A DNA stretch of 64,000 bases from an uncultured Desulfobacter sp. Lineage in GTDB: Bacteria > Desulfobacterota > Desulfobacteria > Desulfobacterales > Desulfobacteraceae. The stretch covers positions 1,088,001-1,152,000 of the forward strand of contig OY762069.1 in NCBI GenBank assembly GCA_963665095.1, written 5' to 3'. The position numbers were made by a program, and so were the translations under genes. Positions 10,958 to 27,457 of the stretch are shown here, piece by piece. The stretch's first letter is position 1. Every line of letters begins with the position of its first letter. The notes beneath the pieces are model-generated. The model ran no database searches. It worked only from the letters and a program-made list of their open reading frames with translations, and had not been told where the DNA came from.

Positions 10958-10966
10958 GCGGCATCT

Positions 10967-11719
10967 ATGATTTGTGCAGGTATTGATATTGGATCCAGAT
11001 CTATTGAGCTGGTATTGGTTGAAAATAGAAAGGTAATTGATACCAGACAGACTGATACCGGCTTTGATCCGATTTCCCAGGCAAAAACCATTTTAAAGGA
11101 CGTGGGCTATGATAAAATAATGGCCACGGGATATGGGCGCAACCTTTTTGAGATAGCGTTTGACCATACAGCGACTGTTACTGAAATAAAAGCTCATGCT
11201 GCCGGGGTCAGACTTCAATTCCCAGAGGTTCAGGCCATTCTGGATATTGGTGGCCAGGACAGTAAGGCCATCCGCCTGAATGACAAAGGTCGGGTCACGA
11301 AATTTGAGATGAATGACCGATGCGCTGCCGGGACCGGCAAATTTCTTGAAATCATGGCCCAGAACTTAGGCTTTTCCCTGAAAGAATTTGGACCGGCCGC
11401 AATGGCAGCGGAAAAAGACCTGCAGATTAACAGTATGTGCACTGTGTTTGCAGAATCGGAAGTGACTTCTCTGATTGCCAAGGGCCAGGATCGGCAGGAA
11501 ATTGCCAGAGGACTTCATTTAAGTGTGGTCAAAAGGGCCGTGGGAATGCTCAACCGTGTAGGCGGAGAAGGACCCATTGCCTTTTCAGGCGGGGTGGCTC
11601 AGAATCCGTGCATGGTCCAGATGGTGGCAAATGCTTTGGGCAGGGAGGTGCTGGTCCCTCTCAATCCACAAATGATGGGCGCCTTAGGAGCGGCCATGAT
11701 TATGTCTGAAAATCTGTGA
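10967..11719 (+). CDS. ATP-dependent activase (HgdC/DCCP-R type, ASKHA)
   Basis: GIDIGS, ATGYGR, LDIGGQDSK, MNDRCAAGTG, SMCTVFAESEV, SGGVA. Confidence 0.92.
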   Translation: MICAGIDIGSRSIELVLVENRKVIDTRQTDTGFDPISQAKTILKDVGYDKIMATGYGRNLFEIAFDHTATVTEIKAHAAGVRLQFPEVQAILDIGGQDSKAIRLNDKGRVTKFEMNDRCAAGTGKFLEIMAQNLGFSLKEFGPAAMAAEKDLQINSMCTVFAESEVTSLIAKGQDRQEIARGLHLSVVKRAVGMLNRVGGEGPIAFSGGVAQNPCMVQMVANALGREVLVPLNPQMMGALGAAMIMSENL

Positions 11720-11820: not shown

Positions 11821-12591
11821 TCAGACTTGGCACCAGGTCCCCACCCGGGTGGAAAAAAACATTGCCTCATCGCAAAAAGAGAAGTAGCCCCAGATAAAGG
11901 GCTGATCCTTGGCATTGAAAAACAGATGCTCCAGTCGAAAGGTGGGAGTGCCTTCCAGGGTTTGAAAACAGGCGGCTTCTTCCTTTCCCATGGCCGCTAC
12001 TTTCAGTTTTAAAAGGCCCTTTTTGATGTTGCCTTTGCTATGTTCAAGTCCGCCTTTGCCGATACAGTCCAGAAAACCGCTGAAAGAGGCAATTGTCAGA
12101 TCCTCTCTTTCAATATGCTGTGTCGCGTCATACCGCAGAAACTGATGATGATAAATCAAAGGGGTTTTGCCCTGGGTCACCATCCGCTGTAGATGGATCA
12201 CCTTGTCCCCCTTACTGATGTGCAACTTTTTAATGACATATTCAGGGGCCGGCATAATCTCAAGATAGAGCAGTTTGACCTTGGCATCATCGGGATCTTT
12301 GAAAATGTCATGGATCTTGGCCAGATCAAAGCTGACCGTATCAAAATTAAAGGGTTTGACAATTGTTCCCTTGCCCTTGGTGGTCTCAACGACACCTTGT
12401 TCCACCAGAATACGGATGGCCCGCCGGATGGTAACGGAAGAGACATCATAGCGCTCTTTGAGCTTTGCCTCAGAGGGCAGCCAGCTCCCGGGTGGATATT
12501 TTCCGTCATCAATCTGGTGCCTTAAAATGTCTACCAGTTGAGAGTAAACCGGTTGATATGCTTTTTTATCAATTTCCCACATAGGCAACAA
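11821..12591 (-). CDS. GntR-family (HutC/UTRA) transcriptional regulator
   Basis: PVYSQL...LPSEAKL..YDVSSVTIRRAI..L...G......GKGT, plus a UTRA-like C-terminus. Confidence 0.9.
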   Translation of the reverse strand: MLPMWEIDKKAYQPVYSQLVDILRHQIDDGKYPPGSWLPSEAKLKERYDVSSVTIRRAIRILVEQGVVETTKGKGTIVKPFNFDTVSFDLAKIHDIFKDPDDAKVKLLYLEIMPAPEYVIKKLHISKGDKVIHLQRMVTQGKTPLIYHHQFLRYDATQHIEREDLTIASFSGFLDCIGKGGLEHSKGNIKKGLLKLKVAAMGKEEAACFQTLEGTPTFRLEHLFFNAKDQPFIWGYFSFCDEAMFFSTRVGTWCQV

Positions 12592-12754
12592 TTTTGGCAG
12601 TTATTTTTCCATTCACATTACTGTTTCAAATTCAAAGAGCCCTTCAAAACGAGCAAACTATAGTCAGGGCCGATGACGAAGTCAATGTTTTATTACCCTT
12701 AAACATCATGCTCAAACCACTTTAAAAAAGTTTCGCGAATACTAAAAAATACAA

Positions 12755-12784
12755 TTGACAATATAAACTTATTATAATAGGTTT
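12755..12784 (+). promoter_or_regulatory. Sigma70-like promoter overlapped by an imperfect 20-bp palindrome
   Basis: TTGACA (12755) - 17 bp - TAGGTT (12778); AAACTTATTATAATAGGTTT (12765-12784) is 18/20 self-complementary. Confidence 0.55.
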
Positions 12785-12895
12785 TCAACTCTGTTTTTGT
12801 TCCCTGATTTGAACAAAAAAACGGTTTGAACTTAAAACCGGCACCAGTATCCGTGCCCCCTGAGCCATCCTGAATTTTTTCTAGGAGTGAATTGA

Positions 12896-13534
12896 ATGCC
12901 GTTGTATGATTTTTTAACCGGCCCTGTGATGTGGGTTACAGTTGCACTTTTTGTTTCAGGCATGGTTTATAAAGCCATTCGCTTAAGACAGCTTGCATCT
13001 TTAGTACGGCCGGCAAATGATTTTTTTAACCCCAATGCCAGCTTTAAAAGGTCCTTTAAGACCTCTCTTCCCGGGCGGTATCCTGTCACCACCATTGTCT
13101 CCATTGTATTTCATCTCATCCTTTTTGTGGTTCCCCTTTTCCTGAAAGGACATAACATCCTTCTGGATGCTTCTCTTGGCATCAGCCTTCCCATGATGCC
13201 GGATCACACCGCAGACAACCTGACCATGATATGCATTTGCTGCTGCCTGTTTTTTCTTTTAAGGCGCCTGCTGGTACGGCGGGTACGGGCTATCTCGTTT
13301 TTCAGCGACTACCTGATCCTTGCCATTGTTATCCTGCCTTTTTTAACTGGATTTATCGCCTATCACCGTCTTCTGCCCTATGATACCGTGTTGAATCTGC
13401 ACATCATCACAGGCCAGCTGATGCTGGTGGCAATGCCCTATACACGACTGGCTCATATGATTGTCTTTTTTATCATGCGGATGCCCCGCCCGACAGCACG
13501 GCTCAAATTGAAAGAAAGCAGAGGGACGGTTTAA
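12896..13534 (+). CDS. TmcC/NarI-like membrane cytochrome b subunit
   Basis: About 5 TM helices; YDFLTGP, VFH, GHN, DY..L, LTG, LH and PYTRLAH pattern of the NarI/TmcC/HmcE family. Confidence 0.8.
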   Translation: MPLYDFLTGPVMWVTVALFVSGMVYKAIRLRQLASLVRPANDFFNPNASFKRSFKTSLPGRYPVTTIVSIVFHLILFVVPLFLKGHNILLDASLGISLPMMPDHTADNLTMICICCCLFFLLRRLLVRRVRAISFFSDYLILAIVILPFLTGFIAYHRLLPYDTVLNLHIITGQLMLVAMPYTRLAHMIVFFIMRMPRPTARLKLKESRGTV

Positions 13535-13536
13535 TT

Positions 13537-14016
13537 ATGTGGTTTATCAACAACAAAATATCCGGGAATATCGCAGCGTATACACCGGAATCGATGACAG
13601 TGCCGAAAACGTCACCGAACCCTTCCGAAATCAAGGAGATGCTTAAACAAAACGCACCGCAGATCAAACTGTTTTTTTCTGCCTGTGCCCACTGTACCTA
13701 TTGTGCAGACACCTGTTTTCTGCAGAAAAACCACGAAGATGATCCAAGCTATATGCCCTCTTTTAAGGTGATTCACTCTGTGGGCAAGCTGTATAAGAAG
13801 AGAGGAAAGGTAACCAGAGAAGAGCTTGAAGAGATCCGGGATATTTTATGGGACAAATGTGCCTTGTGCACCCGGTGCGTGTGCCCGATCCAGCTCAATA
13901 TACCGGGATTGATAGCCCTTGGCAGGAATATCTGCCGGTCCCAGGGCGCAGCGCCAAAATTTGACGGTCCGGTTCCGTCAGTTGCATTGCCTTCCAGGAA
14001 AAGTGAGGTGGCCTGA
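13537..14016 (+). CDS. 4Fe-4S dicluster protein, TmcB/HmcF N-terminal-like, with no CCG domain
   Basis: CAHCTYCADTC and CALCTRCVCP; YMPSFK; only 159 aa. Confidence 0.8.
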   Translation: MWFINNKISGNIAAYTPESMTVPKTSPNPSEIKEMLKQNAPQIKLFFSACAHCTYCADTCFLQKNHEDDPSYMPSFKVIHSVGKLYKKRGKVTREELEEIRDILWDKCALCTRCVCPIQLNIPGLIALGRNICRSQGAAPKFDGPVPSVALPSRKSEVA

Positions 14017-14432
14017 TGGATAAAAAAAGCAAAATTTCTGTTTTCAGACCGGGCTGGTCTATGACAAAGCGCATCATCCTTGCAGGCCTGACCGCAGGAA
14101 TTCTCCTGATCGCCGTTTGCGGTTACGGTAAGGATTTTTTCCCCAATCTTCTGGTGTCTAAAAATTCCAGTCTGCCATCAGCCCATTTCCCCCATGAAGA
14201 GCACATGGGTTTTCTGGATTGTCTGGACTGCCATCATGATTATAAAAACGGCAGCAACGAACTGGATGAAGAGGATCTTTATGAAGGCAATCCGGATATT
14301 CAATGCGGCTCCTGCCATAACGGGAAAAAATCGTTTTCTTTACTTCGTGCTTTTCACCGGCAGTGTATTCAGTGCCATGCAGCTGAAAAGCAGGGTCCTG
14401 TCGTATGTGGCGAATGCCATACCAAATCCTGA
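14016..14432 (+). CDS. Tetraheme cytochrome c3 (acidic, TmcA/type II-like)
   Basis: Signal/TM segment, FPHEEH, four CxxCH motifs (CLDCH, CGSCH, CIQCH, CGECH), acidic ELDEEDLYE stretch. Confidence 0.9.
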   Translation: MDKKSKISVFRPGWSMTKRIILAGLTAGILLIAVCGYGKDFFPNLLVSKNSSLPSAHFPHEEHMGFLDCLDCHHDYKNGSNELDEEDLYEGNPDIQCGSCHNGKKSFSLLRAFHRQCIQCHAAEKQGPVVCGECHTKS

Positions 14433-14492
14433 CACCGCTTTGAGCCGACCCATTAAATAAATACTATCTGTTAAAAGGAAATAGACGTTTCA

Positions 14493-15161
14493 ATGATTAA
14501 AGCAAAACTAAAACCCATTGAAGAGATCCTGGCCCGAATCGCAGGATATAAACGGGTGCTGGTCGTCGGTTGCGGCGGCTGCGTATCCGTGTGTCTGGCA
14601 GGTGGCCAGCAGGAAGTTGAACAGTTGACCAATGCCCTGGATGAACAGTCCAGAAAAGAGTTATTGGGTCATGAAATCAGCGGCTGCACAGTGGAACGTC
14701 AGTGCAATGCCCAGTTTTTAAACGAACTGGATCTCATATATAAGGATTACCACTGTCTGCTTTCCATGGCCTGCGGGGCCGGCAACCAGCTGCTGGCGGA
14801 AAGATACCCTTTTATGCCGGTATTTCCGGCAGTCAACACCATGTTCATCGGCATTGACCGCGGGCCTGGATGGTATGAAGAAAAATGTCGGGCCTGCGGG
14901 TCCTGTGTTTTAGGGTACAGCGGCGGCATCTGCCCTGTGACCCGGTGTGCCAAAGGGCTTTATAACGGGCCCTGCGGCGGCACAGACAACGGCAAATGCG
15001 AAGTGGATAAAAATGTCCCCTGTGCCTGGTATGAGATTTATCACCGCTTAAAACAGCAGGACCGGCTGGCTGATATGCTTGACATCAAGCCCCCGCCACA
15101 ATGGAAGAACACGGTACAACAGACATTGGTTCAGCCCGGATGTGCTGGACCATCTTATTAA
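14493..15161 (+). CDS. metV: Methylene-THF reductase small Fe-S subunit
   Basis: GCGGCVSVCLAGG, VERQC, MACGAG, CRACGSC, GGICPVTRCAKGLYNGPCGG, CEV...CAW. Confidence 0.9.
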   Translation: MIKAKLKPIEEILARIAGYKRVLVVGCGGCVSVCLAGGQQEVEQLTNALDEQSRKELLGHEISGCTVERQCNAQFLNELDLIYKDYHCLLSMACGAGNQLLAERYPFMPVFPAVNTMFIGIDRGPGWYEEKCRACGSCVLGYSGGICPVTRCAKGLYNGPCGGTDNGKCEVDKNVPCAWYEIYHRLKQQDRLADMLDIKPPPQWKNTVQQTLVQPGCAGPSY

Positions 15162-15280
15162 CCCGGCAGTCTGCAGGACAGGGTTTCTTTCAAAAGCCAT
15201 GCGGTTGAATACCATCTTACCCTGAGAACCGAATATACTGTAATGTCCATATTTTTTATTTTGAAAGTTAAAGAAGCATC

Positions 15281-16186
15281 ATGTCTAACACCTTAAAAGA
15301 GAAACTTGACTCCGGCCAGTTTGCAGTTACCGCGGAATTAGGTCCGCCCCAGGGCACGGATGTTGAACATATCAGAGAACGGGCATCCCATCTGAAAGGC
15401 ATTGTGGACGGGGTCAACATCACGGATAATCCGTCGGGTACCGTCAGGATGTCCAGCCTGTCCACCGCATTGATTGCTGCCCAGGAAGGCCTTGAACCCA
15501 TCTGGCAGATGACCTGCCGGGACCGCAACCGCATTGCCATGCAAAGTGAAATTTTGGGTGCCAGTGCCCTTGGCATTAAAAACCTGCTCTGTCTGTCCGG
15601 GGATCACACCACCTCGGGGAACCAGCCGGGTGCCAAAGCGGTTTACGATATTGACTCCATCCAGATGGTGGGTATGGCCGTTCGCATGCGGGATCAGCAC
15701 CTTTTTTTAACCAATGAAAAGCCTTTTACCGGCAATGTGGACCTCTTTGTGGGAGCTGCTGCCAACCCCTTTGCAGAACCTTTGGAGTTCAGGCCCTGGC
15801 GGTTGAAAAAAAAGGTGGATGCTGGAGCAGACTTTATCCAGACCCAGTGCATTTATGATATGGATCTGTTTAAAAAATGGCTGAAACAGGTCCGGGATTT
15901 AGGCGCGGATCAGTCCTGCCATATCCTTGCCGGTATTATCCCCTTAAAATCCTTAGGCATGGCAAAATTTATGGCCGGCAAGGTGGCAGGGGTTGTCATT
16001 CCCGATGCAGTCGTCAAACGAATGGCAGGGGTTCCCAAAAAGGACGGGGCCAAAGAGGGCATTAAAATCTGCTGTGAACAGATCCAGGAGTTAAAGGAGA
16101 TGAAAGGGATTCACGGGCTGCATCTCATGGCCATTGGATGGGAACACCGGGTTGAAGAAATTCTTGTCCAGGCCGGTCTTCGCTGA
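15281..16186 (+). CDS. metF: Methylenetetrahydrofolate reductase
   Basis: VTAELGPPQG, NITDN, QMTCRDRNR, LSGD, KKVDAGADFIQTQ, HLMA. Confidence 0.95.
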   Translation: MSNTLKEKLDSGQFAVTAELGPPQGTDVEHIRERASHLKGIVDGVNITDNPSGTVRMSSLSTALIAAQEGLEPIWQMTCRDRNRIAMQSEILGASALGIKNLLCLSGDHTTSGNQPGAKAVYDIDSIQMVGMAVRMRDQHLFLTNEKPFTGNVDLFVGAAANPFAEPLEFRPWRLKKKVDAGADFIQTQCIYDMDLFKKWLKQVRDLGADQSCHILAGIIPLKSLGMAKFMAGKVAGVVIPDAVVKRMAGVPKKDGAKEGIKICCEQIQELKEMKGIHGLHLMAIGWEHRVEEILVQAGLR

Positions 16187-16206
16187 TAAAACTTAATAAA
16201 GCCTAC

Positions 16207-16250
16207 AAAAAAGCCTTCCGGAGTTAAATATAACTTTGGAAGGCTTTTTT
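16207..16250. terminator. Bidirectional terminator between metF and the MFS gene
   Basis: AAAAAAGCCTTCC...GGAAGGCTTTTTT inverted repeat. Confidence 0.8.
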
Positions 16251-16280
16251 GTATTAACAGTGCTGATATGTCTGTCTGAA

Positions 16281-17444
16281 TCAGGACTGCTGCACCGGTT
16301 CTGGAGACGGTTTGATTCTTAAGACGGCAATAACCACTGCCGTTGCAAGGCCGATGACCAGTCCCGCCATCAGCGGGAACCGGACATCAGGGTTCCCGGA
16401 CATCTTTGCCAGAAACGCCATATAATAAGGAGACGCAAACAGCCCGATATTGGATGTTGCCATGAAAATACCCGTGGCCATGGCTACACCTGCCGGCGAT
16501 ACTTTCATACCCAGTTCCATTATACAAGCAGGAAAAAGGGTAAACAGTCCAATGCCGCACACCCCGATGCCGCAACCCAGCATAACCAGACTGCCGGCAA
16601 AATTTGCAATGCCAAGCCCAAGGCCGATGCCAGCCATTCCAAGCGCAATGGTAAACCGCCCTGCTGTTTTAAAAACTATACCGAAAACAGCACCACCTAC
16701 CATTCCTCCAACTGTAAACATGGCAAGTACGGCACCGGTACTGGCTGCGGTCCCCAGTTTGGCATTAATAATGATGGTGGACATATTTAAAAGAACCGGC
16801 CCGTTTACCATCTGTGCAAAAGCAGATAATATTGCCAGAATAAAAACGATCATGGGCATTTTTGCCTTTTCACCGGATTCTGCAACCGGAGCTTTTTCAG
16901 GTTCCGGCAGAAAGAATATCAAAAAAACCAAAGCGATAATCCCCACAAGATGCGCCAGAAAGGAATACTGCCAGGCAATGGCACACAAAAAAGCGCCCAG
17001 CATCTGCAGAGAGATACCGCCGATATTCGCTGCGACATTGGCAACCCCCATCATATTAGCGCGTTTCTGTCCTTCATAAAATTTCAGCACCAGGGCGTTT
17101 CCCATGGGAAAAAGGATACCGAAACCAACGCCTACGAACATCCTTGTCACAAGAATCATGGTGAAGTTATCCATGAAATAGGGCATGGCCCCCCCGATGG
17201 TGAAAAACAACATACCAATAATAAGAACTGGCCGGTATCCGAATTTTTCAGCAATGGGGCCTACCACAAAGGAACTCGGGATCATGGCCAGAGAGGGCAT
17301 CGTGGAAATCATCATGATCGTGGTAAAAGGGACATCGGGAAACGCCTGGGCAAGGTTCTGAATCGCCGGCGTCATAATGCCCATACCCATCTGAATAAAA
17401 AATATCGATAGTACGGAAATAGTTGCAAAAATATTTAAACCCAT
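16281..17444 (-). CDS. MFS transporter
   Basis: About 12 TM helices; GPIAEKFGYR motif A; TRMFVGVG. Confidence 0.9.
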   Translation of the reverse strand: MGLNIFATISVLSIFFIQMGMGIMTPAIQNLAQAFPDVPFTTIMMISTMPSLAMIPSSFVVGPIAEKFGYRPVLIIGMLFFTIGGAMPYFMDNFTMILVTRMFVGVGFGILFPMGNALVLKFYEGQKRANMMGVANVAANIGGISLQMLGAFLCAIAWQYSFLAHLVGIIALVFLIFFLPEPEKAPVAESGEKAKMPMIVFILAILSAFAQMVNGPVLLNMSTIIINAKLGTAASTGAVLAMFTVGGMVGGAVFGIVFKTAGRFTIALGMAGIGLGLGIANFAGSLVMLGCGIGVCGIGLFTLFPACIMELGMKVSPAGVAMATGIFMATSNIGLFASPYYMAFLAKMSGNPDVRFPLMAGLVIGLATAVVIAVLRIKPSPEPVQQS

Positions 17445-17486
17445 TGTCTCTCTCCTTTTGTGTTACGTGATTTGATTAACAGATAT

Positions 17487-17502
17487 ATTCCTATAGAGGA
17501 CT
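17487..17502. promoter_or_regulatory. Putative operator, copy 1
   Basis: ATTCCTATAGAGGACT, a 14/16 match to the palindrome at 19172, just upstream of the MFS gene. Confidence 0.6.
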
Positions 17503-17621
17503 AACTGTAAGGGTCTTTACCCCGAGGATAGTGGAAAGTCAAGCATATTTACTCAACACGATTAAGATGGCAGGATTTTAAAGCGATTCTGCCATCTACA
17601 ATGAATGGGTTTTAAGATGTT

Positions 17622-19019
17622 TTAGTAGGTTCCGAATTTCCGGGCACTATTAAGAAAGGTATGGATATTTTCCGGATTTGCCTGGTCTATAACGGCACCG
17701 GGGAAAAGAAAAAATCCGCCGCCAGGCGCGCAGGTTTCAATCAGATCTTTACAGTACGATTCCAGCATCTCCTGGCTGCCCTGTTTGAATAAGGAGGCTG
17801 GAACATTCCCGGCAATACAGGCCCAGGGACCGATGAGAGCTTTGGCCACGGCCATGTCAATCTGGCTGAATATCCAAATTGAGCGCCCTTTTGGCAAAGG
17901 ATCAGCCGCGATTATCTCCAGGCGCTTGTCATGGGCGCCTTCCAGAAACAGCATGGGGATACATCCCTGGTCAATCAATCCCTGAAGCGTGGCTCTGAGA
18001 GAGGGCCAGTAAAAAGTTTTAAACTGGTCCCGGGATAAAAAAATATCCGCGCCCTTATGCAGGGGCATATAAATAAAAGGATTCCCTGTTGTCTCAGCCG
18101 CCTGGACACCGATCTGTACCGCCATGGGAACAAGGGACTCCATGGCAGCCAGCACCTTTTCCGGACACCGGTAGAGGTCTTTCATAATTCCCATGGTACA
18201 GCGCATGGTATCCCCTATAAAATCAAACGGGGCAAAAGAGTATCCTTTAAAAATTGAGGGCACACCAAACGTCTCAACAAGCCTGGAAGAGGCTGAGTCG
18301 ACCAACGATGCAGTCTCATGGGCCTTGTCGGCAGCATCTAAAAGGGTATCAATGGCTTTTCTGGCCAGGGTACCCTTTCCAAGAGCGGCAAGGGTCCCTG
18401 TATACCCCACAAGCTCTTTAAAATTAAAAATATTCGGCAGCGTTTTTAACCCTGCAATCTCCGGAAAAATCCGGGGCAGATATTTACGAAGCAAAAACCC
18501 CTCCGGCTGCCAGATCAGCTCATCATATTCATCCTGCCTCATGTATTCATCTTCTATATACTGATAGGAGATACTGTCGGGAAGTGCCTGCCCGGACCTG
18601 CGGGAGCCGGGCCAGCGAACAAGTCTCGACCCTAAAATATCCAGCATGGGGCCTGAATACAGCCCCGGCAGTACAAAGTAATCAAGCTCAAACTCCTGGT
18701 GAAGCCGGGTGGTGGCAACAAGCACCTTGTCAGGATCATAAAATGCATCCCTGGGCTGAACGCCGCCATAGCCAAGGATATAGCCAATGGTCATCAGATG
18801 CACCGGCACCTGATCCGGCTCTTTCAAGGCCAACACATCAAGGACACGCCCGGCTCTTTTTCTGTATCTGCCAACGACTTTCTGATCAGCGCAATGATCA
18901 ATCAGGCCAAGCCATCGCTTGCTGTAAAAATCAAATCTCTCCTCTCCTGTCATACCCTTCCAGTTGTCAGGAAGAGGATGCGTGCCGGATAAAGATCCAT
19001 TTTTATTTTCATCTCTCAT
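17622..19019 (-). CDS. UroD-fold methyltransferase (O-demethylase MT I-like, long form)
   Basis: EPDQVPV, APFD, MPLHKG, QFKTFYWP, FLEG, CIAGNVP, APGGGF, PEN. Confidence 0.8.
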   Translation of the reverse strand: MRDENKNGSLSGTHPLPDNWKGMTGEERFDFYSKRWLGLIDHCADQKVVGRYRKRAGRVLDVLALKEPDQVPVHLMTIGYILGYGGVQPRDAFYDPDKVLVATTRLHQEFELDYFVLPGLYSGPMLDILGSRLVRWPGSRRSGQALPDSISYQYIEDEYMRQDEYDELIWQPEGFLLRKYLPRIFPEIAGLKTLPNIFNFKELVGYTGTLAALGKGTLARKAIDTLLDAADKAHETASLVDSASSRLVETFGVPSIFKGYSFAPFDFIGDTMRCTMGIMKDLYRCPEKVLAAMESLVPMAVQIGVQAAETTGNPFIYMPLHKGADIFLSRDQFKTFYWPSLRATLQGLIDQGCIPMLFLEGAHDKRLEIIAADPLPKGRSIWIFSQIDMAVAKALIGPWACIAGNVPASLFKQGSQEMLESYCKDLIETCAPGGGFFLFPGAVIDQANPENIHTFLNSARKFGTY

Positions 19020-19171
19020 TGGGGTTGTCCTAGCGGATAAAGAGTCAACTGCTTTTTTGCTACTGGCTTCAGGTACTGGATCAATATCATATTATAAATT
19101 CGGGTCAATATCTTTCAAATAAAAACAAAAAATTTATTGACTTTTGATTCGAAATGGTAATATTTTATTCA

Positions 19172-19187
19172 AGTCCTATATAGGACT
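19172..19187. promoter_or_regulatory. Putative operator, copy 2 (perfect 16-bp palindrome)
   Basis: AGTCCTATATAGGACT in a divergent promoter region, downstream of TTGACT (19137). Confidence 0.65.
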
Positions 19188-19268
19188 ATAATTATTAACC
19201 TGGCTTTAAGGCAGCTGAAAAAACGTCCTTAAAGGAACTTGATTAGTATAACAACTAAAGAGGTGGTC

Positions 19269-20072
19269 ATGATTATTATTGGTGAAAAAATTAACGGTGC
19301 CATCCCCTCTGTGGCCGAAGCCATTGCCAAAAAAGATGCTGATTTTATCAAAAACCTTGCCGTCACCCAGACAGAAGCGGGAGCTGCTTTCATTGATGTA
19401 TGTGCCTCCACAGATGTCTCCATTGAACTTGAAACAATGAAATGGCTGATTGATATTGTCCAGGATGCCACAGACACCCCCATTGCCGTGGACAGTCCCG
19501 ATGCCGGCATCTGCGCTGCGGCCATCGCATTCTGCAACAAACCGGGCCTGATCAACTCTGTTTCCCTGGAAGGGGACAAAATTGATGTAGTATTTCCCGT
19601 GATTGCAGACACCAAATGGGAGTGTGCCGCGCTTTTGTGCGACGACACAGGCATCCCCAAAACCGCTGAAAAGCGCCTTGAGGTGTTTACCGGCATCATG
19701 GCCCGGGCCAAAGAATTTAAAATTGATCCCTCCCGACTGCACATCGACCCCCTGGTTGAAATGCTGTGTACAGCAGAGGACGGCATCAACGCCATCGTTG
19801 AGGTGATGCGGGAAATCAAACGGCAGTACCCCACCATCCACGTCACTGGCGGCGCATCCAATATTTCATTTAACCTTCCGGCCAGAAAATTTGTCAACCA
19901 GGCATTTCTGATTCTGGCCATGGGCGCAGGCATGGACAGTGCCATTATCAACCCCCTTCACAAACATATGATGGGGCTGATTTACGCCACCGAGGCGCTT
20001 TTAGGCAACGATGAATACTGTATGGAATATATCGAAGGATACAGAGAAGGACTTTTCGGCCCTGTAAAGTAA
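19269..20072 (+). CDS. Methyl-THF:corrinoid methyltransferase (pterin-binding, MT II/AcsE-like)
   Basis: MIIIGEKING, QTEAGA..IDV, PIAVDS, INSV, IDPLV, GASNISFNLP, GMDSAI. Confidence 0.92.
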   Translation: MIIIGEKINGAIPSVAEAIAKKDADFIKNLAVTQTEAGAAFIDVCASTDVSIELETMKWLIDIVQDATDTPIAVDSPDAGICAAAIAFCNKPGLINSVSLEGDKIDVVFPVIADTKWECAALLCDDTGIPKTAEKRLEVFTGIMARAKEFKIDPSRLHIDPLVEMLCTAEDGINAIVEVMREIKRQYPTIHVTGGASNISFNLPARKFVNQAFLILAMGAGMDSAIINPLHKHMMGLIYATEALLGNDEYCMEYIEGYREGLFGPVK

Positions 20073-20113
20073 CATCGGGGGCAAAAACTTACTTTTTAAA
20101 AAGGAGTGTAAAC

Positions 20114-20749
20114 ATGGCAAAAATTGAAGAAGTAAAAGCAAACGTCGAAAAAGGCAAACGTAAACTTGTTCCCGGTCTGGTCCAGGAAGCCCTTGATGAG
20201 GGCAGTTCTGCCCAACAGATTCTTGATGTCATGGTTGATGCCATGGGTGTTGTGGGAGAAAAATTTTCCTCTGGACAGATCTTTGTACCTGAAATGCTGA
20301 TGGCAGCCAAGGCCATGGGCGCAGGAGTCGACATTATCAAACCGCTGATGGCTGGCGACGCAGGCTCCTCTCTGGGTACCTGTGTGATCGGTACAGTCCA
20401 GGGCGACCTTCATGACATTGGTAAAAACCTGGTCTGCATGATGATTGAAAGTGTGGGCTTCAATATGATTGACCTGGGCGTTGACGTTGCCCCTGAGCAG
20501 TTCATCCAGGCGGTAAAAGACAATGAAAACGTCAAACTGGTTGCCTGCTCCGGTCTTCTTTCCACCACCATGCCTGCCTTAAAACAGACAGTTGAAACAT
20601 TAAAATCCTGCGGCCTGAACGGTTTTAAAGTCATTGTTGGCGGAGCCCCTGTCACCAAGGAATTTGCTGAAGAGATCGGTGCGGACGGATACGCATCAGA
20701 TGCCGGCGGCGCGGCCACTAAAGCCAAAGAGCTGGTTACCGCAGCTTAA
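20114..20749 (+). CDS. Corrinoid (B12-binding) protein
   Basis: FVPEMLMAA, GTVQGDLHDIGKNLV (DxHxxG), DLGVDV, SGLLSTT, VGGAPVT. Confidence 0.95.
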   Translation: MAKIEEVKANVEKGKRKLVPGLVQEALDEGSSAQQILDVMVDAMGVVGEKFSSGQIFVPEMLMAAKAMGAGVDIIKPLMAGDAGSSLGTCVIGTVQGDLHDIGKNLVCMMIESVGFNMIDLGVDVAPEQFIQAVKDNENVKLVACSGLLSTTMPALKQTVETLKSCGLNGFKVIVGGAPVTKEFAEEIGADGYASDAGGAATKAKELVTAA

Positions 20750-20788
20750 AATCAGATAACATTTACTCGGCACAGGAGGAGGATACTT

Positions 20789-21766
20789 ATGCTGACGATA
20801 AAACAAAACCTGCTTGAAACCATGAAAGGGGGAAACCCTGACCGGTTTGTCAAGCAGTACGAATTTTTTGAAATCATCCTTGAGGCACCGGGCGCAAAGT
20901 TTGCCACACCGGGCCAGACCATTGTAAACGAATGGGGCGTCACCTTTTCATGGCCTGAAGACCAGATCGGCGCATTCCCGGTCCATGATGACGAGCATAT
21001 TCTGCTGAAAGATATCACCCAATGGAAAGATATCGTAAAAGCCCCTTCCCTTGAGTTTTCCGATGAAGACTGGGCCCCGGCTGTCGCACATGCCAACTCT
21101 GTTGATCGCAATGAAAAATATGTGGCACCTTTCTTTGCTCCGGGTCTGTTTGAAATGACCCACCACATGATGGGTATGGAAAATGCCATGATGAATCTGT
21201 ATGAAGAACCGGAACTCATGCATGAACTCATCGACTACATCGCCGATTATGAGATCAGAAAAGCCAAAGTCTTCATCGACCGCCTGAAACCCGATGCCCT
21301 GTTCCACCATGATGACTGGGGCGGACAGATCTCCACCTTCATGTCTCCGGATATGTTCAAGGAATTTTATCTTGAACCATATAAGAGGATCTATAAATTC
21401 TGGAAAGATAACGGGGTTGAAGTTGTTGTCCATCACAGTGACTCCTATGCTGCCACACTGGTTCCGTTTATGATTGAAATGGGCATCGATATCTGGCAGG
21501 GCGTGATGACCACCAACGACACACCGGAACTGATTAAAAAATACGGCGATAAAATCACCTTTATGGGCGATGTGGACAGCGGCCCTCTGGATCACCAGAA
21601 CTGGGATGCAAAAGTGATTGCCGAGCATGTGGAAAAAGCGTGCAAAAGATGTGGCAAGCACTACTTCATCCCCTGCCTTACCCAGGGGCTGGGATTCAGT
21701 TCCTTTCCCGGTGTTTACGATGCGGCCAGTGAGGCCATTGAAAAAATGAGCAAAGAGATGTTTTAA
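20789..21766 (+). CDS. UroD-fold methyltransferase (vanillate/veratrol O-demethylase MT I-like)
   Basis: MLTIKQNLLETMKGGNPDRFVKQYE N-terminus, HHDDWG, MSPDMF, HHSDS, GIDIWQG; directly follows MT II and the corrinoid protein. Confidence 0.8.
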   Translation: MLTIKQNLLETMKGGNPDRFVKQYEFFEIILEAPGAKFATPGQTIVNEWGVTFSWPEDQIGAFPVHDDEHILLKDITQWKDIVKAPSLEFSDEDWAPAVAHANSVDRNEKYVAPFFAPGLFEMTHHMMGMENAMMNLYEEPELMHELIDYIADYEIRKAKVFIDRLKPDALFHHDDWGGQISTFMSPDMFKEFYLEPYKRIYKFWKDNGVEVVVHHSDSYAATLVPFMIEMGIDIWQGVMTTNDTPELIKKYGDKITFMGDVDSGPLDHQNWDAKVIAEHVEKACKRCGKHYFIPCLTQGLGFSSFPGVYDAASEAIEKMSKEMF

Positions 21767-21873
21767 AAATCATTGCGACTTTTCTCCCTCTTAAAAGGGT
21801 AACATGGCCAGGGTTGTTTATGCAGTACCGTTGAACACCGTTTCAACCTGGCTATTGCCCTTTCCCTCACAAC

Positions 21874-21909
21874 TCGGGGACACGATGCGTGATTATCGTG
21901 TCCCCCGAA
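21874..21909. terminator. Stem-loop between convergent operons
   Basis: TCGGGGACACGAT...ATCGTGTCCCCCGA. Confidence 0.6.
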
Positions 21910-21943
21910 TTATTTAGCTTGATTTTGATTTCGAGCCTCAATC

Positions 21944-22633
21944 CTAGGTCAAGGAGGAAAGATCTCGCTTGGAAGTCATGGCCATCTTAAAATAATCAAC
22001 GGCTTTGGCCGCGTCAGAAAACCAGATATCGGCTTTTACCTGTTTATTGACCAGTTCATCCATACAATACCCGCCAACAATGATAAGATGCTTGTTGGTT
22101 GTTTCAGTCTTGCGTATCTCGCTCACCGCCTCCGTAAGATTATCCAGGCAGTTTGTCAGAAGGCAGCTGATGGCAATAAAATCGGGCTCAAGTGTTTTGG
22201 TTCTTTCCACAAAGGTATATGCAGGGACATCCACACCAAGGTCAGTCACCTTAAAGCCGTTACAGATCAGCATATCCTTGATAATATTTTTTCCAAGATC
22301 ATGGATATCGCCTTTGATTGTGCCTAAAAGGACATGCCCCAGCGTGCCTTGGCTATCAGTTTCAACCATCTCGAAGGCTGTCAGAAAATCGGCAGCCTGG
22401 CGCATGATCTCTCCTGCCATAATGAGTGCGGAGATATAAAATTCGCCCTTTTCAAACCCCAGACCGACGTTTTTGACCCCTTCCATGCAAAAAGAGAGCA
22501 GCTCCGCCGTGCTGCACCCTTTTCCGTACATTTTTTTAAGCTGAATCAGGCTCTCTTTTTCCTTAAGCGAAGAAATCAGGTCAATCAGTTTTTCTTTTTC
22601 AGCCATAAGCTCATTATCACTGAACTCACTCAT
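21944..22633 (-). CDS. Second corrinoid-binding protein, coupled to GntR
   Basis: GEFYISALIMAG, GTIKGDIHDLGKN (DxHxxG), DLGVDVP, SCLLT; overlaps the GntR stop. Confidence 0.9.
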   Translation of the reverse strand: MSEFSDNELMAEKEKLIDLISSLKEKESLIQLKKMYGKGCSTAELLSFCMEGVKNVGLGFEKGEFYISALIMAGEIMRQAADFLTAFEMVETDSQGTLGHVLLGTIKGDIHDLGKNIIKDMLICNGFKVTDLGVDVPAYTFVERTKTLEPDFIAISCLLTNCLDNLTEAVSEIRKTETTNKHLIIVGGYCMDELVNKQVKADIWFSDAAKAVDYFKMAMTSKRDLSSLT

Positions 22634-23378
22634 TCCACACTCCCACCCGGCTTATCATGGGCATCTGCTGTGTTGGAACTATAAACCAACCATAAGCACA
22701 GGGTTTATCCTTAAAATCGTAATAACAATACTCCAGCCTGAAAACCAGTTCCCCCTCCTGGATTTCAAGCAGTTCAGCCTCCTGCTTATTCACTGCAGCC
22801 GGCAAAAGTTTCAATGTCCCCTTTTTATAGCCGCAGTTCTCATTACTGAAAAACAGGTCTGACAACCCTGTTGTTTCCAGCATACTCTCCACCACCGGTG
22901 ATCTGGGATCAAAGGGCAGGTAGGCGATCTGAAAACAAAACGGGGTTTCATCATTTAAAATAAGCCGCTCAACCAGAATCACAGGGCTGTTCTCACTGAG
23001 CTCAAGCAGCTTACCCTCACTGCCCTGAACCCGGACAATACTCGACTTAAACACCTTAGCCTTCAAGGTTTCAGTATTAGACAGTACTTTATCAAGTGCC
23101 TCAAGGTCAAAGGTGGTGGCACCCACTTCGATTTTTTTAACAAAGGTGCCGCTGCCGTGAATCCGTTCAACAAGCCCCTCTTCCACAAGAACCCCTACGG
23201 CCTGGCGTACGGTCATGGGACTTACATTATATTCCTGGGCAAGATTTGCCTCAGACGGGATTCGGAGCCCCGGACGAAGACGGCCGGAGGCAATATCTTC
23301 CTTGATAATAAATGCAAGCTGGGTATAAACGGGCAGAGAACCTCTTTTCTTTTCCACAACCTTACCCAATTTATTCAA
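22626..23378 (-). CDS. GntR-family (HutC/UTRA) transcriptional regulator
   Basis: PVYTQL...IPSEANLA..YNVSPMTVRQAV...HGSGTFV; paralog of the 11821 GntR (shared FRLE, SRVGxW). Confidence 0.92.
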   Translation of the reverse strand: MNKLGKVVEKKRGSLPVYTQLAFIIKEDIASGRLRPGLRIPSEANLAQEYNVSPMTVRQAVGVLVEEGLVERIHGSGTFVKKIEVGATTFDLEALDKVLSNTETLKAKVFKSSIVRVQGSEGKLLELSENSPVILVERLILNDETPFCFQIAYLPFDPRSPVVESMLETTGLSDLFFSNENCGYKKGTLKLLPAAVNKQEAELLEIQEGELVFRLEYCYYDFKDKPCAYGWFIVPTQQMPMISRVGVWNE

Positions 23379-23525
23379 TTCTCCTTGTATTATTGGCAGA
23401 CTGCCTCATGACTGAATAGTACATAACACAGGAAAAGGGTCAAGTAAAATTGATATTCATATGCTTATATACAGGAATATGATACAGTCATGCCGCATGA
23501 ATGGTGTTTAACGCTTTGAGGTACA

Positions 23526-24194
23526 ATGGGAAAAGTAAGAAAGAAAAGAAAACTGATCTGCTGCCGCGCACTTTCTCATCTGATTGAACCCATGGTTGAC
23601 AGGATTGATCCGCACATGGAGCGGGTCATTCTGCCGATACGGCTTCATTTGAATCAACACAACCTGAACCAAAGCCTTCAGGAGGAGATTACCAGAATTG
23701 AAGAAACCGGGGGTGATATCCTCCTTGGATACGGTTTGTGCGGCAGGGGTGTTGAAGGGGTTAGCTCCGGTAAAAGCCGGCTGATTATCCCCAAAGTGGA
23801 TGACTGCGTCGGTGCCATTTTAGGTTCCAAGGCGCGGCATAAGCGCATTCTTGATCAGAATGCCGGCACTTTTTTTCTGGAACCTTCATGGATTGATACG
23901 GACGTGGATGTCTTTGCCCAGTGTCTCAAAGGGCTTGACAAAATTCCTGAGGAGTACCAGCAGGACATTGTGGACCTGGCATTAAAACACTATTCACGGC
24001 TTGTGCTGATTCATCACAAAGAAGACAAAACAGCCATGGCAGCTGACAGATGCCGCAGCCTTGCAAAACAGTACGGCCTTGAATTTGAACAACTTCAGTC
24101 TGATTTAACGCTGCTTGAAGACTTTTCAAAAGGCAACATTGATTCAGACAGATTTATTATCGTTGAACCGGGAGATAAGGTCCCCTATTTTTAA
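23526..24194 (+). CDS. DUF1638-family protein
   Basis: LH..P-like segment, ILLGYGLCG, PKVDDCVGAILG, GTFFL..SW. Confidence 0.8.
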   Translation: MGKVRKKRKLICCRALSHLIEPMVDRIDPHMERVILPIRLHLNQHNLNQSLQEEITRIEETGGDILLGYGLCGRGVEGVSSGKSRLIIPKVDDCVGAILGSKARHKRILDQNAGTFFLEPSWIDTDVDVFAQCLKGLDKIPEEYQQDIVDLALKHYSRLVLIHHKEDKTAMAADRCRSLAKQYGLEFEQLQSDLTLLEDFSKGNIDSDRFIIVEPGDKVPYF

Positions 24195-24215
24195 TGAAGA
24201 CACCAATTTGAGTTT

Positions 24216-24767
24216 ATGAAAACAGAACAGATAACAGCCATTACAGAGAAATTTTTTGATCACACAAAGGACATCACCTCCTCATCAGTGCCATTTGATG
24301 AACAGGTCCGCGTCATGTGCGAACAGAATATGTGCGGCCAGCTTGGAAAATGCTGGACATGTCCGCCTGCGGTCGGTTCCCTTGAAACCCTGCACGCAGG
24401 ATTATCCCTTTTCACCCGCTTCATGATCTTTGACAAGGTCTACCAGCTTGAAGACAGTTATGACTGGGAGGGCATGGTGGAAAGCCAGAAAGATTTTACA
24501 GCCAGAGTGGTTGCTGCCAAAAAAGAGATCCGCCCACTGCTTGAAGAATCTGACCCTGATTTTCTTATTTTAGGAGCCGGGTCCTGTTCCCTGTGCAAGA
24601 CCTGCAGCTATCTTTCCCAGGAGCCCTGCCGAAATCCGGATGATGCGGTGACTTCTGTGGAGGCCTTTGGCATAGATGCCATGACCATGATGGGGCAAAA
24701 CAATTTGAAATATAACAATGGCGCGAATACCGTGACTTACATCGGCGGCATTTTTTACAAAGGGTAA
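24216..24767 (+). CDS. DUF2284 Cys-rich metal-binding protein
   Basis: CEQNMC...WTCPP, AGSCSLCKTC, PCRNP, SVEAFGID. Confidence 0.85.
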   Translation: MKTEQITAITEKFFDHTKDITSSSVPFDEQVRVMCEQNMCGQLGKCWTCPPAVGSLETLHAGLSLFTRFMIFDKVYQLEDSYDWEGMVESQKDFTARVVAAKKEIRPLLEESDPDFLILGAGSCSLCKTCSYLSQEPCRNPDDAVTSVEAFGIDAMTMMGQNNLKYNNGANTVTYIGGIFYKG

Positions 24768-24812
24768 GCCCCAATATGGAGCAGGTCCCCAAAAACGGAC
24801 AAAAAAAACCGA

Positions 24813-25697
24813 CTATTTTTCGGCAAGTTCGTATATCTGTTCCAGCCTGCCTATAAAATCGGCGCTGTAAAGACCGCAGCTGGTCCCAAACACCAGACTG
24901 GTCATTTCAGTATTCCGGATCAGGGCGGTGAAACGGTCCATGCTGTCAGTAGCCAGGGTATCCGCCTGGAGGTCCTCCACCTCGATTCCGCCTAAGAGAA
25001 CTATGTCGGTATCAAACCTGGGGCCCAGGGAGGAGAAATCATTGATCCGACTCTGGATAGCAGCCAGCCCGTCCAGCTGCCAGGCGGCGAGCATGGGGAC
25101 CAGGGCATCAAGCCGGCCACAGGAGTGGAGAAGAACTGCTTTTTGTTTTTCCCTGAATCCAGCCACAATCTTTGAATAAAAAGGCGTGCACAGGGCATCA
25201 AGATCTTTGGGATTGACCAGGGGACCGCCCTCCCCTGCCAGATCATCGGTGAAGACCACTCCGTCAACAGGCAGGTCCGCCACCTTTTGGGCAAGGTCCC
25301 GGGCCACGGTCAGAAAGGTGTGGTACTGCTCCTTGACCGCCTCGAAGCCTTGGGTCCACAGACTTAAGGTCTCAAACATGCCAAGGGTATTGACCATCTC
25401 CTGGAACGGGCCGTCAATGACGGCAAGAACGGGTCCGTCCCAGGTGAGGGCGGCGGTTTCAAGGTCTGACAGGCTGAAATACCGGTAACCAAGATCGGGC
25501 TTGACCGACCCCTGCGCCAGAACCGGCAGGCAGACCAGACTGTGGCCCAACTGATCGGCCAGGTGCAGGTGGCCCGCGACAGTATCATGGTCCAGGTCCT
25601 TGAACAGACCTGTGCCCATCCATACCTCGCCTTTGGCAATATTTTTTCCGGTGCGGGCCTGAATCCGGGCTTTAAGATGTTCCATTGGCGTGGTCAT
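24813..25697 (-). CDS. Divergent UroD/MtaA-like methyltransferase
   Basis: DGPFQ, TDDLA, LHSCG, GGI, GTSCG (HxC...C Zn-type ligands). Confidence 0.7.
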   Translation of the reverse strand: MTTPMEHLKARIQARTGKNIAKGEVWMGTGLFKDLDHDTVAGHLHLADQLGHSLVCLPVLAQGSVKPDLGYRYFSLSDLETAALTWDGPVLAVIDGPFQEMVNTLGMFETLSLWTQGFEAVKEQYHTFLTVARDLAQKVADLPVDGVVFTDDLAGEGGPLVNPKDLDALCTPFYSKIVAGFREKQKAVLLHSCGRLDALVPMLAAWQLDGLAAIQSRINDFSSLGPRFDTDIVLLGGIEVEDLQADTLATDSMDRFTALIRNTEMTSLVFGTSCGLYSADFIGRLEQIYELAEK

Positions 25698-25894
25698 GGT
25701 CGGGACCTCCTTAAATATTTAAACTTTAACCTGGCAGGTCGGATACGTTCAACGCCTGTCAACCGCAACAGGATACGAAAGGTAACCCCTCAGCAGTATG
25801 ATTACAAGACAGACAGCTTAAGGTCCCTGACCGGCCTTGTCAAATATTTGAACTGATTTTTTATTTTAGAGACAGCAGCAGAAAGGAAACACCC

Positions 25895-27457
25895 ATGCAG
25901 AACAACCAGGCAACCATCACCATATTACCCCATAAAAGAACCATCCTTGCCACCAGAGGCACCACCCTTTTAGAGGCCCTGATACATAAAAGCATATTTT
26001 TGCGAACCGACTGCGGGGGCAAGGGAGTATGCGGCAAATGCCTGGTGGAGGTCATCGGTCCGGACAACAGTGTGGAACCTGTTTTATCCTGCAGCCACCG
26101 CATTGAATCCGACCTTTGCATCCGAATCCCTGAAACCTCCATGCTCTCCTCCCACATCATGAGCAAGGCCCAGATCTTTTTCCCTGAAAGCTTTAATGAA
26201 AAATTTAAACACTCTCAGGGTCCAGACACCTTTGGTATTGCCGTTGATCTTGGCACCACCACCATTGCGGTCTACCTTTGCAACATGGCCAAAGGAGAGG
26301 TGATCTCCTCTCTGGCCGTAAAAAACCCCCAGGCCATATACGGAGACGATGTCATGAGCCGCATCGGGGTGATTGACCAGGATCCTGACAATCTTAAAAA
26401 GCTTCAGGGCTTAGTGGTGAAAAGTATTGAATGGGGAGCAGGCCAGCTGATCTCAAAAGAAAAGGACCCGTCCATCACCATCTGCGGAATGGCAGTGGTA
26501 GGCAATCCTACCATGATCCATATCCTGGCCGGCGTCAACCCCACATCCATTGGAATTGCCCCTTACCAGCCGGCCTTCCATGAATCCAGACAGTTTGACT
26601 CAGCATCTTTGGGATTTGAATCCCTGAACTGCGAATTGCAGGTTCTTCCCCAGGTCTCCGGCTTTCTTGGCGGTGATATACTGGCCGCCGCCATTGCCGT
26701 GGATCTTGACAACCTTGCCCCGGGAACTTTGCTGGTGGACCTTGGCACCAACGGAGAGCTGATCCTTAAGGGTCATGACCGGCTATTCGCCACCTCCTGC
26801 GCCACAGGTCCAGCCTTTGAAGGGGCCAGTCTTGCCTGCGGCATGCAGGCCATTCCCGGCTCCATAAACTCCGTTTCCATTGGCCCGGATCAAAAAGTAA
26901 AAGAACTGACCACTATCCAGGCGGAAAAAGGCCCTGGGGTGCCGGCATCAGGTATTTGCGGCGCCGGTGTCCTCCAGGCTGCAGCCCAGCTGTGCGAACA
27001 CGGCATTATTAAACCTGCCGGACAGTTTATCAACGAAGAAAAAGAGTATGTACTTGTACCCGAAGACCATTCTGCAGGCCAATCCCGGATCTATATCAGC
27101 CAGAAAGATATCCGTTCCATCCAGCTTGGTAAATCAGCGCTTATTTCAGGCATTGAATTCTTATGTGACCGGGCAGGGTTTGACATTCCGAAATCCATTC
27201 TAATTGCAGGGGCATTCGGATCCCATCTGAGCAAGGAGGTACTTTTGCGACTGGGTATCCTGCCCGATATGGAGATATCAAAACTGATCACCATGGGCAA
27301 TGCAGCAGGTTCCGGAGCCGTGATGGTACTCTGTGATCCGGCGTATGTCGGGTTGGCCCAGAAAATGGCAGATAAAATTGAGGTAGTCAGTCTGGAAACC
27401 AACATGGCATTCCAGGAGCGGTTCATCGAAAACTTAAGCTTTCCAGACCCTGAATAA
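25895..27457 (+). CDS. ASKHA-type corrinoid reactivating enzyme (RACE/DUF4445) with an N-terminal 2Fe-2S domain
   Basis: CGGKGVCGKC, VDLGTTT, NPQAIYGDDVMSRI, GFLGGD, DLGTNGE, CATGPAFEG, QKDIR, AGAFG, GNAAG. Confidence 0.92.
   Translation: MQNNQATITILPHKRTILATRGTTLLEALIHKSIFLRTDCGGKGVCGKCLVEVIGPDNSVEPVLSCSHRIESDLCIRIPETSMLSSHIMSKAQIFFPESFNEKFKHSQGPDTFGIAVDLGTTTIAVYLCNMAKGEVISSLAVKNPQAIYGDDVMSRIGVIDQDPDNLKKLQGLVVKSIEWGAGQLISKEKDPSITICGMAVVGNPTMIHILAGVNPTSIGIAPYQPAFHESRQFDSASLGFESLNCELQVLPQVSGFLGGDILAAAIAVDLDNLAPGTLLVDLGTNGELILKGHDRLFATSCATGPAFEGASLACGMQAIPGSINSVSIGPDQKVKELTTIQAEKGPGVPASGICGAGVLQAAAQLCEHGIIKPAGQFINEEKEYVLVPEDHSAGQSRIYISQKDIRSIQLGKSALISGIEFLCDRAGFDIPKSILIAGAFGSHLSKEVLLRLGILPDMEISKLITMGNAAGSGAVMVLCDPAYVGLAQKMADKIEVVSLETNMAFQERFIENLSFPDPE

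Follow-up and report, generated by a model that had tools for sequence, protein, structure and literature searches.

How the methylene-tetrahydrofolate (methylene-THF) reductase step of the Wood-Ljungdahl pathway (E0' -200 mV; PMC8760232) is coupled to the membrane and to energy conservation is an open question. MetVF reductases have no NADH site and need a partner (PMC8760232), and a 2026 account of four types of methylene-THF reductase (MTHFR) leaves the third electron carrier still unknown (PMC13391211). The question is raised again by a five-gene module at positions 12896-16186 of a 64,000-nucleotide (nt) stretch of DNA from an uncultured Desulfobacter sp., hereafter the window and the window's genome. 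Judging from its genes and motifs, their conserved linkage, a MetV clade and one gene fusion, MetF, a module-specific MetV, a short iron-sulfur (FeS) protein with no CCG domain, a di-haem cytochrome b and a cytochrome c3 would on balance probably form one membrane-spanning oxidoreductase between the periplasmic cytochrome pool and methylene-/methyl-THF. The module is real and conserved, is built from known parts, is apparently undescribed, and is likely the long-sought membrane wire for MetVF. It offers a complete candidate chain in one operon, which makes the question directly testable.

The five genes and their products

Five intact open reading frames (ORFs), all on the + strand, lie where a first-pass annotation of the window had placed them, and Pfam and NCBIfam scans agree with the identities it had proposed (NarI/TmcC-like cytochrome b, FeS protein, c3, MetV and MetF). 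Lengths are in amino acids (aa):

12896..13534, + strand: predicted di-haem cytochrome b of the TmcC/HmcE/NarI family, 212 aa (NCBIfam, fold match, conserved His)
13537..14016, + strand: short FeS protein, 159 aa (Pfam Fer4_17/Fer4_8, TmcB/HmcF N-terminus)
14016..14432, + strand: tetrahaem cytochrome c3, TmcA-like, 138 aa (four CxxCH, NF045722)
14493..15161, + strand: MetV, 222 aa (PF12225, E 6.8e-36)
15281..16186, + strand: MetF, flavin-dependent methylene-THF reductase subunit, 301 aa (PF02219, E 2.1e-46)

The intergenic gaps are 2, -1, 60 and 119 nt, and a purine-rich stretch lies 5' of each gene. A scan of the c3-metV gap (14433-14492), where a separate metVF promoter would have spoken against a single operon, found no promoter-like site; the five genes are presumably co-transcribed.

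The cytochrome b has its best NCBIfam matches in TmcC (NF045723, E 3.6e-50; 170 bits against a cut-off of 240) and HmcE, and all three Tmc-like genes score under the curated TmcA/B/C cut-offs. Its five hydrophobic segments are predicted membrane helices, and the structure model is all-helical, with a predicted local distance difference test (pLDDT) value of 88 and NarI as the best fold match. Across 76 sequences His73, His86 and His169 are invariant and His187 occurs in at least 90%; His169 and His187 align with NarI His187 and His205, and the four are the likely haem ligands. Such a four-histidine cytochrome b of TmcC type is a feature that the module shares with Tmc complexes.

The c3 of the window carries CxxCH motifs at 69, 97, 117 and 131 behind an N-terminal hydrophobic stretch, has a mature pI of 5.8 and is predicted to be secreted to the periplasm. 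It is best matched by TmcA (NF045722, E 8.4e-23; 80.6 bits against a cut-off of 114) and has relatives among solved cytochrome c3 structures. Four CxxCH motifs are found in 78 of 81 module cytochrome c ORFs and 16-17 in the other three, while an N-terminal hydrophobic stretch is present in 79. Haem and cluster ligands are all conserved among the aligned module members.

The FeS protein contains the motifs CxxCxxCxxxC (50-60) and CxxCxxCxCP (108-117), the second being two residues shorter than in TmcB. Its residues 32-142 match positions 24-137 of the 430-position TmcB/HmcF profile, which is the N-terminal di-cluster part only, and the Pfam scan gave no CCG family match in the 159 residues; the absence of the CCG portion stated in the first-pass annotation is thereby borne out. 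Its model (pLDDT 96) gives weak fold matches to the FeS subunits of heterodisulfide reductase and complex II (best E 0.21), enzymes in which a helical FeS domain joins the membrane anchor to the catalytic subunit. Among solved structures, none matched the MetV or FeS profile by sequence.

A truncated protein of this kind could also come from a decaying duplicate of a tmc operon that lies by chance before metVF. The window's genome does hold a full tmcDCBA downstream of a second set, hdrA-mvhD-metV-metF, and breaks are seen in a few related loci (L073, L092, L116). However, the eight Cys ligands and the length of the short form are conserved in 76/76 aligned members, and its identity to the TmcB of the same genome (453 aa) is just 28% over 110 residues. 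At E <= 1e-30 the protein is matched by 1374 clusters of 63-226 aa, one of them from Desulfobacula toluolica. Conservation across many families refutes decay, whose probability is close to nil; judged by its sequence, the short FeS protein is a conserved family and not a broken tmcB.

A profile of this family picked out 89 of 401 Desulfobacterales genomes, with 90 matches in all at E <= 3.1e-49, divided by a score gap from full-length TmcB-like proteins, and the closest relatives outside the family are full-length TmcB/HmcF-like proteins at 146-148 bits. The closest relatives that carry names are Desulfobacter. The module thus reaches about a fifth of Desulfobacterales genomes and is present in the cultured Desulfobacula toluolica, with protein CCK82375.1, and Desulfobacter curvatus DSM 3379. 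A phylum-wide draw found the short FeS protein in 28 of 401 genomes, of which 24 do not belong to Desulfobacterales. A tail of more than 60 aa is seen in 0/80 metagenome members, and no CCG neighbour stands beside the short FeS gene in the mapped genome and metagenome loci. As to the concern that a CCG subunit encoded elsewhere might be the true partner, a check of the window's genome found no orphan TmcB-like CCG protein; its DsrK-size protein is encoded away from the module. A 122-aa relative of the short FeS protein (P0028/P0299) is labelled Spirochaetota.

Conserved linkage of the membrane genes to metV

Gene order was mapped at 66 loci, comprising 61 of the 90 strong matches, one weaker match and four same-genus genomes, with a run defined by gene gaps of up to 600 nt (L117 was excluded for having no FeS match and lying at a contig end). 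The run that holds the short FeS gene also holds metV in 66/66 loci, cytochrome b in 65/66, c3 in 63/66 and metF in 35/66, in ten gene orders. The stable core is cytochrome b, FeS protein and MetV. In 30 of the 66 loci the cytochrome b and FeS genes sit between metV and metF, an arrangement that speaks against metVF as a unit of its own. Outside Desulfobacterales (20 of 24 loci mapped), metV is contiguous in 18/20 and one gene away in the other two, and metF is contiguous in 18/20. Overall, metV is contiguous in 84 of 86 genome loci (66 + 20), and in metagenomes it is present in 59 of 80 loci and in 26/26 of those long enough on both sides, so that the synteny anticipated by the first-pass annotation is indeed conserved. 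The window's own order recurs in 5 of 25 same-genus genomes and in L149.

Flanking genes differ freely between loci, and no ferredoxin gene recurs among the 56 of 87 flanking proteins that were family-scanned. Cytochrome b and FeS protein are fused as a single chain in L119 and P0021, which belong to one locus. In L153, L159, L165 and L167 the c3 is swapped for a multihaem cytochrome of 554-600 aa, with 16-17 CxxCH in three of these proteins; a periplasmic cytochrome partner is therefore kept even when the c3 itself is replaced. L168 also falls in a variant class with a 554-607 aa multihaem cytochrome after metF in place of c3. Apparent c3-MetV fusions in L073, L083, L088 and L109 proved to be ORF-calling artefacts, the c3 being separate, and a c3-FeS frame in L113 is a possible assembly frameshift that was not used.

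A MetV clade belonging to the module

MetF (PF02219) and MetV (PF12225) give the module the family features of MetVF-type reductases. In module MetVs 13 Cys are invariant (76/76), and all 76 group together in a FastTree phylogeny (support 0.66). A thinned maximum-likelihood tree with midpoint root (28 of the 76 module and 32 of 52 other sequences) recovers the module clade, 28/28, with an ultrafast bootstrap (UFBoot) of 100; the non-module MetVs come only from carrier genomes, acetogen sequences lying outside the tree. Among the sequences sampled, the window's MetV thus appears in a clade exclusive to the module. Five residues, G29, S32, Q39, N72 and D122, are present in at least 89% of module MetVs; none of the eight sister sequences has them, and among 44 other MetVs their frequency does not exceed 5%. 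They may form a docking surface, and we infer a physical contact between FeS protein and MetV. Complex prediction for this pair (76-row alignments, four 4Fe-4S clusters) scored 0.02 with controls likewise unfolded, and has no bearing either way. Pairwise identities of FeS protein, MetV and cytochrome b are correlated (r 0.71-0.77), a pattern that follows from common ancestry and was not taken as evidence.

These data bear on whether the genes might be co-regulated with no complex formed, a mini-Tmc reducing a soluble carrier (ferredoxin or flavodoxin) that serves a soluble type II MetVF. MetVF enzymes are for the most part soluble once purified, and reduced ferredoxin serves as their donor in vitro (PMC8760232, PMC8515935); MetVF of Sporomusa ovata was not co-purified with its gene neighbours according to the available text of PMC9430772. 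However, metV stays in place through ten gene orders while metF can leave, the scanned flanks hold no recurring ferredoxin gene, and the separate MetV clade, with conserved positions of its own, points to a dedicated contact; the soluble carrier is therefore quite unlikely.

The sister MetVs of the module clade come from L220, L222, L223, L224, L205, L213, L218 and L219. The first four of these loci read hdrA-mvhD-(HdrD-like FeS+CCG in two frames)-metV-metF, the frame change being perhaps a selenocysteine break. A short-FeS copy of HdrC type beside the sister MetVs was considered and rejected: the neighbour is the HdrD-like FeS+CCG protein, at only about 20 bits.

The window's MetF is 54% identical to the Hdr-linked MetF of the same genome, with a mean identity of 57% to 47 other module MetFs and 51% to 30 Hdr-linked ones. 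The MetF tree unites 46 module MetFs in a single clade (support 0.96). The MetFs of the window and of four congeners are diverged, and their position is unreliable, given the midpoint root and long branches. Alignments with solved MetF are too distant to assess the NADH site. Separately, L152, L155 and L156 have MetF-MetV fusions of 512-523 aa after the module.

The absence of metF from 31 of the 66 runs might mean that MetV is an adaptor for an enzyme other than MetF, or that the module is biosynthetic, supplying methyl-THF to methionine synthase, and has no energetic role. Four same-genus carriers (G003, G021, G022, G024) have their sole pterin-binding match inside an 820-aa frame of methionine-synthase-type size, which fits the biosynthetic version. 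Set against this are the presence of metF in the other 35 runs and in 18 of the 20 loci outside the order, the single clade formed by 46 module MetFs and the position of some modules immediately behind acsE, and we regard both versions as very unlikely. The proposed oxidoreductase would accommodate the runs lacking metF if MetF were supplied there from another locus.

Proposed electron path

In the oxidoreductase that we propose, electrons would pass between periplasmic c3, two b haems, two FeS clusters, two MetV clusters, the MetF flavin and methylene-THF, with MetVF taking the place of Tmc's CCG catalytic domain. The haems of c3 are low-potential, and with the methylene-THF couple at -200 mV the wire would therefore lie near equilibrium, its direction set by the donor and the membrane potential. 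Oxidation of H2 or formate in the periplasm could thus drive methylene-THF reduction, with charge separation as a redox loop. In reverse, on methyl donors or during acetyl-CoA oxidation, the membrane potential would help to push methyl-THF electrons out to c3. The inward, reductive direction would be the more general role, oxidation being plausible in the window's genome. In support of this proposal we count the closest relative, Tmc, which is reported to move electrons inward from periplasmic cytochrome c3 during H2 use (10.1101/005694).

Genomic context, direction and points against

The module is flanked by the following features:

11821..12591, - strand: divergent GntR-UTRA regulator (PF00392 + PF07702)
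12755..12783, + strand: candidate sigma-70 promoter, TTGACA-17 nt-TAGGTT (by eye, under the scan threshold)
16204..16253, no strand assigned: terminator-like hairpin with a 23-bp stem (-32.3 kcal/mol, z -9.6, 0/200 shuffles)
16281..27457, no strand assigned: corrinoid methyltransferase island (Pfam and NCBIfam)

The divergent GntR gene of the first-pass annotation is present as described, and a terminator-like hairpin agrees with its single terminator; its single promoter fared less well, as a sigma-70 consensus scan found no + strand site anywhere in 12500-16400 and the candidate seen by eye (TTGACA at 12755-12760, TAGGTT at 12778-12783) lies below threshold. The hairpin is bordered by A and T runs and so likely serves both the module operon and the convergent major facilitator superfamily (MFS) gene. 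A weak hairpin at the 3' end of metV was not significant (21/200 shuffles as good), and a repeat search of three promoter regions gave no common operator. The GntR-UTRA gene was not found beside six related loci mapped; the regulator is local to the window's genome and outside the conserved module.

The island at 16281-27457 encodes an MFS transporter, three UroD-like methyltransferases, a methyl-THF:corrinoid methyltransferase, two corrinoid proteins, a second GntR regulator, DUF1638 and DUF2284 proteins and RACo. The methyl-THF:corrinoid methyltransferase has four more copies in the genome at 82-89% identity, whereas no second copy close to the RACo, DUF1638 or DUF2284 gene is present there. 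Type 1 mlp clusters are defined as lacking a folate methyltransferase (PMC10418091), so the island is not of that type. The window's genome also has an acs cluster, formyl-THF synthetase and NiFe hydrogenases. With these genes, the five close methyltransferase copies and the adjoining island, methyl oxidation by the module is plausible in this genome.

The first-pass annotation had gone further and cast the module as a device for oxidising methyl-THF made by the adjacent demethylases. As a general role this is not supported. The module has unrelated neighbours and no methyltransferase island at the four same-genus loci, and G003, G021, G022 and G024, all 100% complete, yielded neither acetyl-CoA synthase nor a stand-alone methyl-THF:corrinoid methyltransferase. 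The demethylase link is therefore local, applying at most to the window's genome. The four carriers possess hydrogenases and formyl-THF synthetase, and three that were checked also retain hdrA-mvhD-metVF, giving two MetVF systems.

Close to that oxidative reading is the possibility that the same membrane complex has menaquinone as its partner, electrons passing from methyl-THF through MetVF, FeS protein and cytochrome b to the quinone (E0' -74 mV) with c3 as an accessory. NarI-family anchors react with quinones, and the b haems of DsrM are reduced by menadiol (PMC10861901). Transfer from methyl-THF to menaquinone is downhill and has been proposed for Moorella and Thermacetogenium (PMC13391211, PMC6895022); in addition, three of the 66 runs have no c3, and the window's module adjoins a methyltransferase island in a genome with five close methyl-THF methyltransferase copies. 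A periplasmic cytochrome is nevertheless present in 63 of the 66 loci, with a larger one substituted in others; the anchor is nearest TmcC/HmcE and not NarI in NCBIfam; and in the same-genus carriers no supply of methyl-THF for oxidation is apparent. We consider the menaquinone route unlikely, if worth keeping in view, and retain c3 as the partner of the proposed oxidoreductase.

Several findings weigh against this oxidoreductase and its energetic role. metF is missing from 31 of the 66 runs, and c3 from three. In the window's own subfamily (the window and L023-L026, five genomes) the C-terminal G..R..W tail has been lost from the cytochrome b, although it is retained in 57 of 83 module members and in TmcC, and the window's MetV is long-branched. 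The failure to find acetyl-CoA synthase or the methyltransferase in the four same-genus carriers leaves their energy role not obvious. The module occurs in 89 of 401 genomes compared with 341 of 401 for acetyl-CoA synthase, about a quarter of Wood-Ljungdahl genomes, and acsB, found in 72 of 80 carriers, shows no enrichment over that same background, which renders the co-occurrence uninformative within the order. Further MetV copies exist in 66 of the 80 carriers, and hdrA-mvhD precedes every one of the 30 sequences that best match the Hdr-linked copy. Most carriers thus also keep an Hdr-type metVF, and the module is there accessory, not needed for the step.

Two findings count in favour of the proposed oxidoreductase. 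In 14 of the 80 carriers the module MetV is the only MetV matched, and in L153, L159, L165 and L167 the module stands directly behind acsE, inside or beside acs genes. The second metVF of the window's genome, hdrA (1005 aa)-mvhD-metV-metF at L002:9267-18896 (G000:C1, about 2.059-2.069 Mb), has a NifU-like gene and then the full tmcD-C-B-A behind it on the same strand. This placement of a complete Tmc immediately after an Hdr-type metVF may connect the two systems in a second way. G013 repeats the L002 gene order with broken tmc frames.

Further observations concern the rest of the window. A second GntR-UTRA gene at 22626-23378 abuts a corrinoid-protein gene; it and the regulator at 11821-12591 are each other's sole match in the genome at E <= 1e-25 (33% identity). 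Just upstream of the latter, at 9677-11719, lie a double-cubane-cluster reductase (NF040772, over the cut-off) and an ATPase activator. The window also includes a very His-rich ORF (61734-62144) and two near-identical ORFs (48967-50064 and 52815-54041), which we take to resemble repeated transposases.

Novelty and comparison with known systems

Full-text searches of the literature found no description of the five-gene set in the text available. The available text of PMC2702500, PMC10553843, PMC5109826, PMC11887813, PMC5736913, PMC6295475 and PMC6085437 likewise does not describe it, and the four MTHFR types and proposed NuoEFG-linked type, as far as the accessible literature presents them, have no cytochrome subunit. 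The window's locus adds a diverged subfamily, a methyltransferase context in one genome and persistence where acetyl-CoA synthase was not found.

The module might represent an undescribed MTHFR type, an integral-membrane, quinone-independent cytochrome c3:methylene-THF oxidoreductase. This type would work as a redox loop in CO2 fixation from H2 or formate, be reversed by the membrane potential in acetate or methyl oxidation, be widespread in sulfate reducers and related anaerobes and accept electrons from periplasmic multihaem wires. We advance this wider proposal tentatively, as a serious possibility that falls somewhat short of probable.

Type II MetVF (Clostridium ljungdahlii), type III MetVF-RnfC2 (Acetobacterium woodii) and the proposed NuoEFG-linked X type share MetV and MetF with the module but, in the available text of PMC8760232 and PMC8515935, have no cytochrome partner; rnfC2, the mark of type III, is not among the neighbours of the window's locus. 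The type IV, Hdr-type enzyme HdrCBA-MvhD-MetVF of Moorella thermoacetica and S. ovata likewise has a MetVF core with accessory electron-transfer subunits. Part of the S. ovata enzyme is bound to the membrane, H2 reduces it in washed membrane preparations, and its membrane-integral partner could not be identified (PMC9430772). The Hdr-type enzymes of S. ovata and T. phaeum are both membrane-associated, with no integral partner identified in the available text of PMC9430772 and PMC6895022. The module operon, by contrast, lacks HdrA, HdrB and MvhD, and hence would have no NADH site or bifurcating flavin, but includes the gene for an integral membrane subunit; hdrA(BC)/mvhD genes are absent beside metVF at the window's locus and present at L002.

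With DsrMK and HdrED the module shares a NarI-type di-haem anchor and a helical di-cluster FeS domain, whereas their catalytic part, a CCG non-cubane cluster for (tri)sulfide reduction (PMC10861901), is absent from it. Compared with TmcABCD, the type II cytochrome c3 complex of Desulfovibrio, and HmcABCDEF, it has the TmcC-like cytochrome b, the TmcA-like c3 and the TmcB/HmcF di-cluster domain in common; it differs in having no CCG domain and no TmcD, a shorter second cluster motif and a dedicated MetV, often with MetF, in the operon. A search with the genome's own TmcD found no match in the window's operon or in the 65 related loci mapped. By its domain make-up, the module would thus work like a Tmc wire and is not a member of Tmc. 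Tmc itself is presumed to supply electrons for sulfite reduction via DsrC; if the proposed oxidoreductase is real, a Tmc-type wire has been re-used for carbon rather than sulfur metabolism.

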